DNA from: a virus
Taxonomy: Duplodnaviria > Caudoviricetes
Strand: one strand, 5' to 3'
IMG/VR virus record: IMGVR_UViG_3300028886_000002
Span: 32,001-96,000 of that record
DNA: 64,000 bases
The notes under the pieces were generated by a model, which was not told the DNA's origin, did not search any database, and saw nothing but the letters and a program-made list of their open reading frames with translations. Below are positions 18,422-62,524 of this stretch, in pieces. How positions within the stretch are numbered: position 1 is the stretch's first letter; each line of letters begins with the position of its first letter. The translations under genes and the position numbers were made by a program.

Positions 18422-21400
18422 ATGAGTACATGTGTATATAAACTTGGAGGAAGAGTATTTGGTTCAGAGTTGGATTTAGATAATTTCTTATATAATTATC
18501 TCGGATCTTTTGATGCAGACAGCATACCTGATCTTGTATTTAGTACACGATCTCCTAAAGCTAATGTGCTTTCTAAAAAATTGGATGATAAAGCTGAAGC
18601 TTTAAAAGCCAATGTAGTTAAAGCTGCAAAACTAAGGGCTAGAAGAGATGAATTTGTTAGTGAAGCAGAAAGTGCATTAATAGCAAATTACTATGGTGCT
18701 AATATGGTATTATCTACTGTAGAAATCGCCCCAAATACAAGAATAACACCAGAGTTCATTCGCTCTAAATTAAAAGCTAACTTGTTTAATTAGTGGACTG
18801 GTTAGCCTTCAGCTAAATCAACAGGTATTAGTAAAAACATTGCTGATATTTTAGCCGCAGCAGGCTATACAGAGAATGGCAGGCAATTAAAAGCTGGAGA
18901 TATTATTACAGAATAGACATATGCTGGCAATTCCACCAATATAGAAGATATTTTCCCTAAATGCAATGATATATTTGAAAATTATGTATGGCCTTATTGG
19001 GCAGGTTTAGGAAAAGTAGGTACTGCTATGCACCGTGTAGCAGAAATGTTTTGGTTGGGAGAAAGCACTATTTCCATATTAAATGATTCTGTTGTTATAA
19101 CTGGTGATGACAGTTTTACTGGCGATTTATCTAGTGTTTCTCCAGTACTTTCTAATGATACTATACATGAATTTCTTACATATCTAAATAGTTTAAAAAC
19201 TACTTTGCAAGCTCGACATGGAAAAAATTGTAAATTTAGACCTGAGTATCCAGTAGTTGCTAAAAGCTCTCTTCCAGTAAAAGGCAATCATAAGGCTCAT
19301 ATTATAGGTATCATTGACTTAGTAGTAGAAGACGAATAGGGAATACCTCATATTTATGACTATAAAACGTCCGATAAAGATATGGATGAATGGGGTGCAA
19401 TTAAAAGAAGATCTTATATGGCTCAGTTAGGTTTATATAGACGTATTCTTGAATCTTATGGTATAAATATAGAAGGTTCTACTCTAGGAATTTTACCTAT
19501 AAATTTAGCAAATTACACCATAACAAATGAGGGGTCACCTAGAGTAAATTCAATAGAATGTCCTAAAGATGTAAGAGGTCTTCCTTACATTGAAGATGTT
19601 TCTAGAGAACCAGCCTTATCACCTTTAGGAGAATTAACTGCAAAAATTAATAAGTTAGTATATGCTGAAAATGAACTTGAAGCTTTACCAACTAACTTTA
19701 TTAGAGATATTGAAACACATTTCAAAGAACTCTTCCCAAGTTATACCTTTTAGAAAGACTATGATGATGCTGTAAAAGAAGGTATAGAAGCTGAGATAAA
19801 AGAAAACTTGAATAATGGTAAGTACATGTTCCCAAAAATTCCTGGTGAAAAAGAACGTATGGAATATGATAAAGAGGAAATATCTTAGCATATGGAAGAA
19901 TTTTATAAAAAGTATGTTACTTAGAATGATATAGCTCAAAAGCGTAACATATTTTATATAAAACAAGCTATTAGAGAGTAGGATCCCGCTAGACTTCCAG
20001 CAGTATCTTCTGTTAACTATGGAGACAAAGGCGAATGGTTTATTCCAATGTTTTCTAGATATTGTAACGGCTCGTGGGAACCTGTAAACAATGACGCTCT
20101 TGAGAGTTTAAACATATTAGCTTTAAGAAATAAAATCTCTGGACAAGTTAACATCTTTGTTCTAAGCGGATATGACTTAAGCCGTAAAGTAAAAATGAAA
20201 GAGGGTAATACAGTCCTAGGGTAGCATGTTAATGATATTACACCACAACATGAAGGCGTTATTCCATTAGAAGCTGATTTAGGAAACATTGAATTAATGA
20301 AAGCAATGGTAGCTATTAATTTAGCATCTAGATCAGTTCTTCGTAAAGGGGATAAACTAGGCGAAGTTATGGCAATAAATATTTGGAATCAGTAGGGTAG
20401 AACTACCTCTAATAAGCAATTAATGGATAATTTCAATGCTCTATGTGATTATTCACAAACAACTATGCCTAATAATTTTGCCAATGGTAAAATAGAAGTA
20501 GCGTCTGCAACTCAAAAAGTTGCTACTACTATGCTTGAATTAGGTTCTTTGGAAAAAGTGGGAGTTTTAAACCGTATATACTCTAAATATGAAAAAAGCT
20601 TAGTGTCTTTGGACATTGAATATGATACATTAAATAGACTTCGTAAGGAATTAGAGGATGCATATCCAGATTTAGCAAAAGGAGAAGTAGATATTAATAC
20701 ATCCCAAGGGGCTATGTATTCTACTATTATGACTGCTATTTCTGAAATGAATAATGCTTATTATACACAAGAATTAAGAGAAAGTTCCTTTATATCTCTT
20801 AATGTCAATACTCCTGAAATGATGGAATCTTCTAATTTAAGAAGATTAAGAGCTTTAACTAACAATGCATTCTAGAGATTACGTGATAGAATGAATAATG
20901 AAGCTGCCGAGTGGAGAATCCATTATGACAAATTAATAAAAGCCAAAGGTTACAGTAGAGGAGAAAAGTGGATCACTGATAATGATTCACGTCTTTATGA
21001 GAATATGATTATTCATAATAAAGAATAGGGTATTCTTAAATTTAAAAATCCTTGGGATCAGACTACAGACTTGACTAAAGAAGAAAGAGAATTCTTAAAA
21101 TGGTATCTTGATAAACAAGACAAACTAAGGTTTGAAGAGGATAGCACAGAAGAAAGTCGTCAATTAAGAAGGGCAGACTCTAATAGTCAATACTTTGATG
21201 TTCCTTTAATGGAATCTAAGGGACAAGAAAAAATCTTAAATGGCAGAACTAAAGGTTTAGTGGCATGGTTTAAGCGTACAATGCAATGGTGGAGACACCC
21301 AATTCAAAATGCTAAACGATTAGAAGCGAAGGTTTTAACAAATGAGAAAGCCGACGAAGCAAAGAAGACTGCACAAGCTTTTAGAATTATGGATGTTTTT

Positions 21401-45196: not shown

Positions 45197-46279
45197 TTAT
45201 AGTTTAAAAGTTACTTTAGGAGTATCTGTTGTTTTGATAGTATCTTGTTTTAATGTCCAATTAGGATTTTTATAAGTTTCATAGTCCATAATTTCTTCAG
45301 GTTTAGGAAGCTCCTTAAACCAGCCACATTCTCCGTAAAATCCAATATGGTCTATTATATCAGAAGTACCAAATCTTGACTTTAGAAGGATACAAGCTAG
45401 ATAATTATGTCCTATTTCTTTCATATTATATCCTTTATAACTAGCTAATTTAAATTTAAGAGGGGAATGTAGTGCTAATACTACTTGAGAATCTTCATAC
45501 ATAGCAGCAGAATCCTTAAAATCAGAAGCATCAGGCTCTTGCTGCCCTTGCCTCAATCTTTCAGAATTGTTTGCATTTCTATTAAACTGCATAATATGAA
45601 TTGGACTTATATTATATTTATTTCTTAAAGAAACAGAATATGAAGATAATAAATCCATTTCCTCTTTCTTACTTTTACCTGCACTAGCTCTTACAAGAGA
45701 CATATGATCGATAATAACAGAAATTATTTGATTTTCATTATTAGGTATATAATATTTAGGAGTAAAAGTACCAAATCTTTTTAAGTCTTCTAATACTGTC
45801 TTTTTATATTTTTCAGCATTTAAAGTACCACCATGAAATATAATTCTTTCATCTAATAGCTTTAAGAATGGAGTACAAGACTTAACTAATTCAAAGTGTT
45901 CATCAGATAATCTACAATCATGTCCTCTGGAAAATAACTCTTTATACGTTATTGAAACACCATATTTTTCAAATACATACATAGAAACCAGTTTAGCATA
46001 AATTTGTTCTTGAGTCATCTCCAAGTTGAACATAATAAAATATGGATCTCTGAATGTAGATATACCCTTTATATATTCCTTTAAAGGCTTATATATAAAA
46101 GAGTATAACATAAAGGTACTTTTACCTACGCCACTTTGGGCAGCTATTAAATAAGATGTACCTGGAAGAAGACCATCCATATATAATTCCATTTTAGGAA
46201 GGCCAATAGTTAATCCTATGTTATTTCCATCTCTTCCTTTATCAATCAATTCATAAAAACGTTCTGTTCCTGTCATCAT
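45197..46279 (-). CDS. DnaB-like replicative helicase
   Basis: AQSGVGKS, NLEM, IIDHMSL, MQFNR, DFKDS, LKSRFG. Confidence 0.9.
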   Translation of the reverse strand: MMTGTERFYELIDKGRDGNNIGLTIGLPKMELYMDGLLPGTSYLIAAQSGVGKSTFMLYSFIYKPLKEYIKGISTFRDPYFIMFNLEMTQEQIYAKLVSMYVFEKYGVSITYKELFSRGHDCRLSDEHFELVKSCTPFLKLLDERIIFHGGTLNAEKYKKTVLEDLKRFGTFTPKYYIPNNENQIISVIIDHMSLVRASAGKSKKEEMDLLSSYSVSLRNKYNISPIHIMQFNRNANNSERLRQGQQEPDASDFKDSAAMYEDSQVVLALHSPLKFKLASYKGYNMKEIGHNYLACILLKSRFGTSDIIDHIGFYGECGWFKELPKPEEIMDYETYKNPNWTLKQDTIKTTDTPKVTFKL

Positions 46280-46884
46280 ACGGATGTTAAGGTATCAAAT
46301 GTTATAGTACCATTACCATCTTTCATTTCTGCAACACTCTCCCACATCTTACTCACTACAAAATCAGCTATATTCATATTAATAAGCCTACAATTATTTT
46401 CTTTAGCCCATTCTATTAACTCTAGTATCTCACGATGTTTATCTATATTCCATCCTATACTTTTACCATAAGCGAAAAAGAATTCATCTTCTGAATTAAA
46501 TTTCTTTGCAAAGTTTTTAAGTGGGGCTTCTACACCATTAATAACACAGATACTAGGATAAGTTTTCCAAAATTCATAACCAAGTTCATTACTGCATTTC
46601 ATGTGACCAGTTAAAAAATTCTTAGAAAAAGGGACAGTTTCAGGGTCAAATTTATCTCCTTTATCTGGGATTTTATAGGATTTTAGTATTATATTTTTAT
46701 TTTGTAGCGAAACAAGTATATCTCTTAAATCACATTTAGATGCTTCTAAATACTTACATAAATATTCTGAATGCCTTAATTCACTATTAGCTAATAAAAG
46801 TAATTCTATTATAAATAATTCTTCTGCATTTAGGCTATAACGAGCCATAAGCAGTAGTTTATTATCAAGTGATTTTATTTCCAA
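46276..46884 (-). CDS. Replication-associated hypothetical protein (TTG start)
   Basis: 202-aa ORF coupled to the helicase; EFWKTYP motif of the type seen in phage replication initiator C-terminal domains. Confidence 0.6.
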   Translation of the reverse strand: MEIKSLDNKLLLMARYSLNAEELFIIELLLLANSELRHSEYLCKYLEASKCDLRDILVSLQNKNIILKSYKIPDKGDKFDPETVPFSKNFLTGHMKCSNELGYEFWKTYPSICVINGVEAPLKNFAKKFNSEDEFFFAYGKSIGWNIDKHREILELIEWAKENNCRLINMNIADFVVSKMWESVAEMKDGNGTITFDTLTSV

Positions 46885-47100
46885 TTAAATAGACTGATTG
46901 TATAGTTTCGAGCTATATCTATTTAATTGCATACAGTTTATATTCCTTTCGGAAGGTGTCTATTGCATCTTATAGCGACGAAGTAATGTGCGCTCTAAAT
47001 CAATTAATTCGTCTTCAAACTTTTCCATATCATATACAGTGCTGTCTTCATAACGTTTAAACAGCAAATGCATAGCAATATATTTTATATACTTAAACAT
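46885..47100 (-). CDS. Leader ORF: 46 aa if TAG stops, 71 aa if read through to the TAA adjoining the next TTG start
   Basis: ATG 47100; TAG 46962-46960; TAA 46887-46885 directly followed by TTG 46884. Confidence 0.55.
46888..46964 (-). promoter_or_regulatory. Structured RNA leader upstream of the replication genes
   Basis: Closing helix aauagac/gucuauu; inner hairpins ccuuc-cg-aaagg region and uauagc-ucg-aaacuaua. Confidence 0.5.
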
Positions 47101-47104
47101 ATAA

Positions 47105-48355
47105 TTAAAATCTAAAAATCATTTGTTTAGTTTTAGTATTTATTTTAGGAGTTATCTTCTTACCTTCTAATAATAGATGTAAGTTCTCCTCGTCTATAGT
47201 AATGTATTTACTATTCCCTACACTATTTCGGAACCATTGCTCTTCTACAGTATTCTTAATAACTAAATTAAATATTTCTACAACCTTTCCTTCTTGTTGT
47301 CTAATTGCTCGGCCTATGCGTTGTTTTTTGGTTGTTTTACTACTATTAGTACCTAAGATTATAGCTACTGATATAGAGGGGTCATTAAATCCTTCATTTA
47401 ACCTCATAATAGAATGTACAACTCCACTATCTTGGTTAATAAATTCCTCTAAAGTAATTCTCCCTTTCTTCTTAGAATCTTTACCAGAGTAAACCTTACC
47501 ATATTTTAGTTTTTCAGCCATTGCAATTGTTGCACTAAAAGTGATGCACTTTTTGTCTTGTCTATGCTCTAATATTAAATTAGTTAACTCTACTTTCTTA
47601 GGATGATTATTTATATATTTTTTCCTTTTCTGTAGGGTCCTAGTAAATCCCATAGCATGTATAAGAATTTGCTTATTTACTTCTTTAAAATTAGTACCAT
47701 CAGACTTTTGTTTGGCTAAAGCAGCTCGTGCCTTCCAATCAGTAGCCATCTTCATAGCTACTCCAAAATTGAAGTCAAAAAAAGAGAAATGCTCAATAAA
47801 TTCTCGGTTAACCTTTTCATATTCTTCTATATCATCAGGTTCTATTAGAACCAAATACTCTCTATAATCATTTAACCAATCATTTTTGATAGATTCCTCT
47901 ATTGTAACTTCATCAACAATAGGTGCATGTTGTGATAATAATCTATCTCTACCATCCAGTCTTTCAAATGTAGCAGTAAGACCTAATATTATCTTATATT
48001 CTACATTCTCAAATACTGAATATAAAGTAGGAGCAGCAACCTTATGTACTTCATCTATTACCAATAATGCACATTTATATTGATTACGTGATACATCATA
48101 CATTGTATGTACTTCTGCATTTATATTATTATCTTGCAATTCTTTATCCCATTGTATTTTTATTGCATCACTAGGTACAACAATTATAACTTTTTTATTT
48201 GCATTTTTATTTTGAAACCTTCGAACAGCCTGTAGTCCTATTTGAGTCTTTCCAAATCCTGTAGCTGCAACAATACTTCCGATACATTTACTTTTTATCC
48301 AATTATCAACACATTCTTTTTGTCTTTTACTACGAGAAGAATTAGGATCAAACAT
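47105..48355 (-). CDS. Superfamily 2 (DExH) helicase
   Basis: ATGFGKT, DEVH, LGLTAT, LNEGFN, QRIGRAIR. Confidence 0.92.
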   Translation of the reverse strand: MFDPNSSRSKRQKECVDNWIKSKCIGSIVAATGFGKTQIGLQAVRRFQNKNANKKVIIVVPSDAIKIQWDKELQDNNINAEVHTMYDVSRNQYKCALLVIDEVHKVAAPTLYSVFENVEYKIILGLTATFERLDGRDRLLSQHAPIVDEVTIEESIKNDWLNDYREYLVLIEPDDIEEYEKVNREFIEHFSFFDFNFGVAMKMATDWKARAALAKQKSDGTNFKEVNKQILIHAMGFTRTLQKRKKYINNHPKKVELTNLILEHRQDKKCITFSATIAMAEKLKYGKVYSGKDSKKKGRITLEEFINQDSGVVHSIMRLNEGFNDPSISVAIILGTNSSKTTKKQRIGRAIRQQEGKVVEIFNLVIKNTVEEQWFRNSVGNSKYITIDEENLHLLLEGKKITPKINTKTKQMIFRF

Positions 48356-54064: not shown

Positions 54065-54068
54065 ATTG

Positions 54069-54148
54069 TACAGGGAGGGGGATTTGAACCCCCATACTGG
54101 CGTCAATTTAGTAAACTGATGCAAGCATCCCTTATGCGTTACCCCTGC
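54069..54148 (-). ncRNA. Atypical tRNA-like RNA with extended anticodon stem (loop UUACUAA, nominal anticodon ACU)
   Basis: Acceptor GCAGGGG/TCCCTGT; D-like GCAT/ATGC; T-arm GGGGG-TTCAAAT-CCCCC; 8-position anticodon stem with one A-C mismatch. Confidence 0.7.
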
Positions 54149-61790: not shown

Positions 61791-62130
61791 GCCAACCTAT
61801 CATATAGGCATAAGCTTCATCATCTTCTGTATGTTCAACTCCCCTGTCTTTAAGAATACTATCAGCAGTGTGATATACCTCATGTAAATAGTAAGTAGGA
61901 TAATTTGCATCTTTTATAATCGTAACATACCCATCGTTATTTAATAATGTTACAACACTACCACCACAAGTATCACTTGAAATTTCATCAGATACTTCTT
62001 TTATATCTTCCTCACTAAGTTTATCTTTGTTTGTTTCCTTACTACAAAATTCTATCCATTCTTCACTTGTAGTTTCAAGAAGGAAAAGTACATTAGTGTT
62101 ATAAATCGGCACATCTAATTGTCTAATCAT
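61720..62130 (-). CDS. Small HExxH zincin-like protein
   Basis: YLHEVYH...DEAYAY motif. Confidence 0.7.
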   Translation of the reverse strand: MIRQLDVPIYNTNVLFLLETTSEEWIEFCSKETNKDKLSEEDIKEVSDEISSDTCGGSVVTLLNNDGYVTIIKDANYPTYYLHEVYHTADSILKDRGVEHTEDDEAYAYMIGWLGQQYCDMLEEFNKEKEDWDESE

Positions 62131-62524
62131 TTTGATTATTATTTAAAAAGTAATTATCAAATTCATCTTTAAACCAATAAAGTATATTATTAACAAGACG
62201 GTCAATAATTGCAGGAAGTGCGTATGTTCCTAAGATATACGTACTTCTTAAACAAAAACATCCTTTAGGATTTGTGTCTGTAATATCTACAATTATCTCC
62301 CAATTCCCGTCTGAATAATTTGGTGACACAGCCCTACCAAGTCTTGATAAAGTATCAATATTATTACAATAAAACCACATGCTAAAAACATTTATCCCAT
62401 GACCTGAACATGATTCAAATGTATAAACTCCTGGAAGTCTATTTAATGTATAGTATAGACTAACACATTCTATGTCTAAGTCTTTAGGTGGTTTATCCAC
62501 ATCAGTTATTTCTTTTATCTTCAT
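62123..62524 (-). CDS. Hypothetical protein (TYW3-like N-terminal motif)
   Basis: D...LNRLPGVYTFESCSGH; ends in TAG with a backup TAA eight codons later. Confidence 0.6.
   Translation of the reverse strand: MKIKEITDVDKPPKDLDIECVSLYYTLNRLPGVYTFESCSGHGINVFSMWFYCNNIDTLSRLGRAVSPNYSDGNWEIIVDITDTNPKGCFCLRSTYILGTYALPAIIDRLVNNILYWFKDEFDNYFLNNNQND

Follow-up and report, generated by a model that had tools for sequence, protein, structure and literature searches.

The window, the whole 64,000-nucleotide stretch of DNA analysed here, corresponds to bases 32001-96000 of a virus record that is 160.7 kb long and carries terminal repeats. On its minus strand, a helicase gene, a small open reading frame (ORF), the gene of a 202-amino-acid protein (p202) and the gene of a DnaB-like replicative helicase follow one another, and a conserved leader RNA motif of ~110 nucleotides leads into the start of p202 (Table 1). 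The TAA of the upstream helicase gene lies 4 nucleotides ahead of the ATG of the small ORF, and p202 and the DnaB-like gene share an ATGA (46279-46276) in which the stop of the one (TGA) and the start of the other (ATG) overlap. An initial annotation, made from the sequence and its ORF list, had described a 46-codon frame closed by TAG, 24 further open codons up to a TAA immediately before the TTG start of the next gene, and coupling of that gene to the DnaB-like helicase. Direct reading of the minus strand and the ORF lists bore out both parts of the frame, and the stop/start overlap together with the DnaB_C domain bore out the pairing of p202 with the helicase. A promoter scan returned background levels, and a terminator scan found none.

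Table 1. Genes, reading frames and RNA features around the leader of p202 (window coordinates)
Feature	Position	Strand	Remarks
Upstream helicase gene (ResIII/Helicase_C, PHROG 16)	47105..48355	-	TAA at 47107-47105
Small ORF, 46 codons	46960..47100	-	ATG at 47100; ends at TAG 46962-46960
Read-through extension	46885..46959	-	24 codons plus TAA 46887-46885
TTG start codon of p202	46882..46884	-	directly after TAA 46887-46885
p202 gene	46276..46884	-	202-aa protein; TTG is the first start
DnaB-like replicative helicase gene (DnaB_C in Pfam, PHROG 19)	45197..46279	-
Conserved leader RNA motif	46873..46985	-	covariance-model match, 70.8 bits
P0, 5' strand	46964..46967	-	UGCA in the window; UGUA or UGUG in relatives
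P1 hairpin	46943..46954	-	4 bp, GAAA (GNRA) loop; strongest covariation
Invariant UAA	46938..46940	-	present in 26/26 aligned leaders
P0, 3' strand	46928..46931	-	UGCA; last two bases (CA) also the base of P2
P2 long hairpin	46882..46929	-	5' strand 46929-46913 pairs with 46894-46882
5' arm of the earlier-proposed 7-bp helix	46958..46964	-	contains the TAG; complementary to 46894-46888

The genome is strongly recoded at TAG, as judged from the gain in long-ORF coverage when TAG is read as sense (41% to 81%) and from a tRNA with anticodon CUA, located outside the window. Late genes are full of in-frame TAG, and the replication genes have none. Among the 82 ORFs of the minus-strand early block, 55 end in TAA, 25 in TGA and 2 in TAG, which makes a TAG stop unusual there; of the two TAG-ending ORFs, one belongs to a recoded gene. 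Besides the 46-codon ORF, only the ORF at 62123-62524 (minus strand) ends in TAG in the early block without being part of a recoded gene, and read-through would add 7 codons to it. Within the window the only tRNA call is an odd tRNA-Ser with anticodon ACT (54068-54148, minus strand). Outside it, a tmRNA-like gene with the tag peptide GGTLNIACWP (ARAGORN; G000:C1:114250-114584, minus strand) sits inside a cluster of phage tRNA genes. Two related genomes differ in code state: G002 is strongly recoded (ORF coverage 56% to 80% with TAG as sense), and G003, the genome that holds locus L036, has mostly open genes already in the standard code (82%, rising to 88%). G002 has two tandem tRNAs with anticodon CUA, and G003 carries one (19612-19684) despite its near-standard-code ORFs.

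No Pfam or PHROG family matched p202, for which at least 63 homologues were found. In IMG/VR, 237 stretches matched a profile scan, and 80 of these loci, spanning 34-40 distinct leaders, were fetched. TTG was the first start at the homologous codon in all 80 (45-98% identity), and the first 12 codons after it are kept as protein among p202 relatives. Two distant relatives (L089 and L086) have ATG in place of TTG at the homologous codon, and L089 shares its p202 N-terminus with L092, which has TTG; the TTG position is taken as the start of p202 because distant loci have ATG there with the same N-terminal peptide. A reading of p202 and the upstream ORF as one gene broken by the TAA was rejected, since p202 stands alone in some relatives, and the ATG of L089 and L086 counters it as well. 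In the phage GenBank collection, only two distant records were present: L086, which carries the leader motif, and L087, in which the covariance model found no leader motif at E values up to 10. In another distant lineage (L090:273-679, and L091), an additional ORF of 103 codons stands behind the leader and runs into the ATG start of p202, and the leader may control a string of three genes there.

A structure model of p202 (pLDDT 87) resembled winged-helix proteins over residues 1-99 (MotA, MarR and DnaD-NTD), with Z scores of 5.3-6.2, a range common by chance. Residues 99-183 showed a weak likeness to the SPP1 helicase loader G39P, also with a score in the chance range (Z 5.0, rmsd 2.8 over 64 residues). 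Foldseek returned no match for the model at E values up to 0.001. From the likeness in predicted fold and the adjacency to DnaB, a role for p202 in loading or organizing the helicase is plausible.

The ~100 nucleotides upstream of the TTG are far better conserved than ordinary spacer, and three helices were recognized in the leader. P0, typically UGUA paired with UACA, is UGCA/UGCA in the window and UGUG/CACA in others; it encloses P1, a GNRA hairpin of 4-5 bp. The stem sequence of P1 is wholly different between clades, and in 14 of the 26 aligned leaders two of its pairs have both bases altered. The junction between P0 and P1 ranges from 4 to 11 nucleotides and varies in sequence as well. The invariant UAA follows P1 and, like P1, is enclosed by P0; it is the stop codon of a small gene (ORF-B) in relatives and lies out of the small ORF's frame in the window. 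Directly after this P0/P1/UAA part stands P2, an A/U-rich hairpin of 15-20 bp, whose conserved 5' strand (CAGUUA onward) pairs with the bases just before the start codon and, in most clades, with the UUG too (UAAUUG), and whose apical half differs completely between clades. The 3' end of P2 falls at -1, +1 or +3 of the start codon, according to clade; where a triplet other than UAA stands at the junction, its 5' partner in P2 has changed as well, and the helix stops at -1 or +1.

Every leader, folded alone, forms P2 at -12 to -16 kcal/mol (single-sequence folds), and in each of the 26 most of the stretch from -15 to -1 is predicted to be paired (unpaired probability 0.03-0.36). The UUG itself is predicted to be free in L036, L069 and L075, because the register of P2 differs by clade. 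P0 and P2 share a CA that has two possible partners: the UG of the start codon, which closes P2, and the UG of an invariant AUG farther upstream, which completes P0. The predicted balance of the two states differs among lineages; in L006 and L115, P0 does not overlap P2. Leader and UUG are kept alike in the recoded G002 and the near-standard-code G003.

Covariation was scored on a MAFFT alignment of 26 distinct leaders. For P0, P1 and P2 together, 91.6% of cells were paired, against 81.9% in shuffles (0 of 500 reached the observed value), although the relatives are non-independent samples and the shuffle statistics therefore overstate significance. With slid partners only 24-49% of cells were paired. 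Ten pairs were changed on both sides in this alignment, and the addition of distant loci on which the model had not been trained gave 14 such pairs, with 90.9% of cells paired. P2 alone has 5-7 pairs changed on both sides, counted on a structure derived from the same sequences. RNAalifold recovered P0 and P1 from both alignments and did not return P2; the support for P2 comes from single-sequence folds and from pair counts on a structure derived from the same leaders, and A/U-rich RNA pairs easily.

The covariance model found one strong copy in the 160.7-kb genome (70.8 bits) and scored 24.6 bits on the reverse strand; this weak reverse-strand score and the many G-U pairs place the structure on the sense strand. 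It matched the leader in 80 of 80 IMG/VR loci and in 6 of 8 untrained loci (37-46% protein identity; one weakly, E=0.04), and each motif-bearing untrained locus has new P1 stems. The motif is thus kept in more than 80 relatives of 37-98% protein identity, in recoded and near-standard-code genomes. A motif-only pattern (P0 5' strand, P1 and UAA, with no p202 sequence), scanned over all IMG/VR, matched 41 contigs once each, and p202 follows the match in 39; in the other two the stretch is too short to tell. Rfam 15 (cmscan of 46700-47300, both strands, E up to 10) held no matching family, the sole match being 13-bit noise on the opposite strand, and no paper describing the element was found in the literature. 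In one clade (L036-L041; L044:3714-3817), a weak second match to the model lies inside the DnaB-like gene (22-28 bits, E ~0.03-0.9) with its own P0/P1-like pairing, and this may be chance. The idea of a regulon was dropped, the word formed by the P2 5' strand having 17 matches in the window with 18 expected by chance.

In the window's own leader, P2 pairs 46929-46917 with 46894-46882 at probabilities of 0.96-0.99 for 12 of the 13 pairs (0.59 for the innermost), so the UUG and positions -10 to -1 are predicted to be buried. P0 is predicted to be weak there (probability 0.02-0.06). Among 160 crude gene starts in the genome, only 1 is both as stable and as occluded. The initial annotation had instead placed the UAG in a 7-bp helix that closes just before the start codon. 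The two arms are indeed perfectly complementary, and the 3' arm does end 3 nucleotides before the TTG, but the helix is predicted not to form: forcing it changes the minimum free energy of the window RNA from -18.9 to -13.4 kcal/mol (a cost of 5.5 kcal/mol), its pair probabilities are ~0, and its 3' arm is out-competed by P2. Nor did it covary, since 66% pairing over the 26 distinct relatives was reached by 195 of 500 shuffles.

We read 46985-46873 (minus strand) as a conserved cis-acting leader RNA that would act as a translational operator for the p202/DnaB-like helicase pair, and from sequence comparison and structure prediction we give this reading a probability of roughly 0.65. A helix lies over the initiation region (the P2 3' strand of the window covers -10 to +3), and compensatory change is seen in its pairs, the share of paired cells over P0, P1 and P2 exceeding that in all 500 shuffles, on a structure that was derived from the same sequences. 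In its general form, the proposal of a translational control element ahead of the replication genes is supported, with a weak TTG start behind a folded leader. That the leader is a new RNA element, outside the described families and resembling start-sequestering operators, appears well supported by these comparisons.

In the mechanism that we propose, the P2 fold would keep initiation at the UUG low; such phages are expected to live in hosts where initiation requires a start region free of structure. Because the stop of p202 overlaps the start of the helicase gene, the leader would set the output of both p202 and the DnaB-like helicase. The shared CA would toggle between the P2-closed and P0-complete states, and the leader looks poised to switch because this CA pairs in two ways with a lineage-dependent balance. 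The trigger would most likely be a leader-binding protein, which is a guess; autogenous control by p202, with its winged-helix-like domain, would be one candidate.

The initial annotation had gone further and taken the UAG as a sensor of the code state. Confined to the window's clade, this would mean that an ancestral leader hiding the start had become such a sensor: early in infection ribosomes would stop at the UAG and leave P2 closed, and after synthesis of the phage tRNA(CUA) they would read on through P1, melt P2, stop at the UAA next to the UUG and re-initiate there; if true, the output of the helicase-loader-like protein and the DnaB-like helicase would rise with the code state. We regard even this clade-only form as unlikely. 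Its layout of TAG, open frame and TAA-TTG is real, the genome is strongly recoded and has the tRNA, a TAG stop stands out among early-block ORFs (2/82), and the frame is open in 4 of 4 clade members. The small ORF, close behind the helicase stop, also looks translated (6 synonymous to 3 non-synonymous changes over its 46 codons, window versus L005; p202 itself has 41:10 within the clade) and is, from its sequence, probably a real gene of the clade, with no Pfam or PHROG match for its 46 amino acids. P2 is predicted to occlude the start, so a passing ribosome would matter, and a clade-specific effect of read-through would be mechanically possible because ribosomes would cross P2 to reach the UAA beside the UUG.

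Several observations stand against it. The TAG and the open extension occur only in the window, L004, L005 and L113 (at most 11% divergence, at least 89% identical there), and with four near-identical leaders the open frame has hardly been tested by evolution. When the 72-nucleotide extension was shuffled, 13% of the shuffles stayed open; multiplied by one third for the shared frame, the chance level is roughly 4-5%. The extension itself is without protein constraint (1 synonymous to 3 non-synonymous changes in the clade), and its changes fall in unpaired RNA. The other 23 distinct leaders have UUG, UGG, CGC and others at the position of the TAG, and 2-5 stops interrupt the p202 frame ahead of the junction in all relatives beyond the clade; the small ORF of these relatives ends at a TAA elsewhere, with no open frame to the junction. 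The UAG-holding helix, as noted, is not predicted to form. The TAA-TTG junction is ancestral and explained by base pairing in P2, where the junction TAA pairs with UUA and the two change together. P1 can be read either way: it begins 5 nucleotides after the UAG, as a structure that stimulates read-through might, and it is kept in all relatives that lack a UAG.

Because the relatives, recoded G002 included, have neither the TAG nor the open frame, amber sensing as a conserved device is not supported at the family level, on the very comparison that the initial annotation had named as its test. The stop is not conserved at the same position in relatives, and the extension is neither kept open in them nor constrained as protein. 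The TAG at 46962-46960, two bases 3' of the P0 5' strand and in the variable P0-P1 junction of the leader, would then do no more than end a small upstream ORF that is specific to the clade. For TAG-recoded phages at large, PMC9523058 gives metaproteomic evidence for code 15, and bioRxiv 10.1101/2021.08.26.457843 puts forward that in-frame stops may regulate the translation of late-stage and lytic genes in gut phages. Such gut phages share with the present genome the late-gene TAGs, the TAG-free replication genes and the suppressor tRNA(CUA); they differ from it in that here a single TAG was claimed as a sensor ahead of a replication gene, a claim that the relatives do not support.

Helicase stop and TTG are separated by 88-130 nucleotides in six lineages, by 220-228 nucleotides in the window's clade and by ~390-560 nucleotides in most others. 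The longer spacers of most relatives hold two small conserved genes, ORF-A (~60 codons) and ORF-B (52-74 codons), for example at L012:2000-2430 and in homologous stretches of L009, L036, L053, L075 and others. Neither has a Pfam or PHROG family match, and the 46-aa ORF of the window has no significant homology to them (3 bits). TAG is a frequent stop of ORF-A. The ORF-B protein opens with a conserved MTTERMLEL, and the final ~11 codons of ORF-B double as the P0 5' strand and P1; ORF-B ends exactly at the invariant UAA, 50-57 nucleotides before the UUG, in a frame that varies relative to the start. The six short-gap lineages, which have no ORF-B, keep the whole motif, UAA included.

Ribosomes that end at the UAA of ORF-B (at the UAG in the window) could be imagined to melt P0 and P1 and thereby tilt the balance between P0 and P2, coupling p202 to the upstream ORF. 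ORF-B is a conserved small protein family that, where present, stops at the invariant UAA in relatives down to 46% (L088), and the CA common to P0 and P2 offers a route. Such coupling nevertheless seems improbable to us, given that the motif persists in the six lineages that lack ORF-B, that the frame of ORF-B relative to the start is not fixed, and that a stop 50 nucleotides upstream is too far for ordinary termination-reinitiation. A stop codon within a few nucleotides of the start, where a translating ribosome would end, was found in the window only if the TAG is read through. A bypass of the T4 gene 60 type from ORF-B to p202 was also considered and rejected: take-off and landing codons match (GAA/GAA) only in some lineages and differ in L008, L011, L036, L047, L075 and L078, and p202 stands alone in the short-gap genomes.

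The leader could also be a riboswitch, with P0, P1 and their junctions as a metabolite aptamer and P2 as the expression platform. The helix that would close the aptamer shares bases with the start-sequestering helix, an invariant UAA and a GNRA loop are present, and the element adjoins replication genes. We hold this to be quite improbable: the P0-P1 junction varies in length (4 to 11 nucleotides) and sequence, unlike ligand pockets, P0 and P2 are free of overlap in L006 and L115, and no Rfam family was matched. Least probable of all, and in our judgement very remote, is a role at the DNA level, in which the element would be an origin or a signal for single-strand initiation next to the replication genes. 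Initiator genes often contain or adjoin the origin in phages, and strand-specific hairpins with G-T pairs are also known in single-stranded DNA signals, but a role in translation is favoured because in every clade P2 has its 3' end at the start codon (-1, +1 or +3) and because the non-AUG start is conserved.

As a putative translational operator, the leader has counterparts in other phages and in bacteria. In the replicase operator of MS2 and Q-beta, the start of a replication gene lies inside a hairpin, and initiation stays low until the hairpin is refolded or bound. The leader described here likewise has a start-containing hairpin on a replication gene; it has no sequence or structural homology to that operator, belongs to a double-stranded DNA phage, and differs in a much longer hairpin, preceded by the P0/P1 domain, and in a binding protein that is only guessed. 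In T4, the pseudoknot of the gene 32 leader, the gene 43 hairpin and the RegA sites are leader structures that permit autogenous or protein-mediated repression. They too stand ahead of replication genes of a double-stranded DNA phage; the likeness is one of description, and the protein that would bind the present leader is a guess. The gene infC (IF3) is autoregulated through a conserved non-AUG start, and in both systems a non-canonical start is kept across distant relatives; the codon is AUU in infC and UUG here, and nothing points to initiation-factor discrimination at the p202 leader. Start-sequestering riboswitches in Rfam share with the leader a closing helix that competes with a start-sequestering helix, and differ from it in that the leader has no Rfam match at E up to 10 and its junctions are not conserved.

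Guts and rumens are rich in large crAss-like phages with recoded TAG, yet to our knowledge the timing and dosage of replication proteins in these phages are almost wholly unstudied. The leader would be among very few candidate cis-regulatory RNAs for that phage group. It is a well-defined, testable element of ~110 nucleotides, with one copy per genome, always before p202, coupled with a conserved weak UUG start and absent from Rfam. The hosts are expected not to rely on Shine-Dalgarno pairing, and the leader offers a handle on the control of translation in such hosts. The locus also counsels caution with recoded genomes, in which a striking layout seen in a single genome (here TAG, open frame and TAA-TTG) may merely reflect an RNA structure of greater age.
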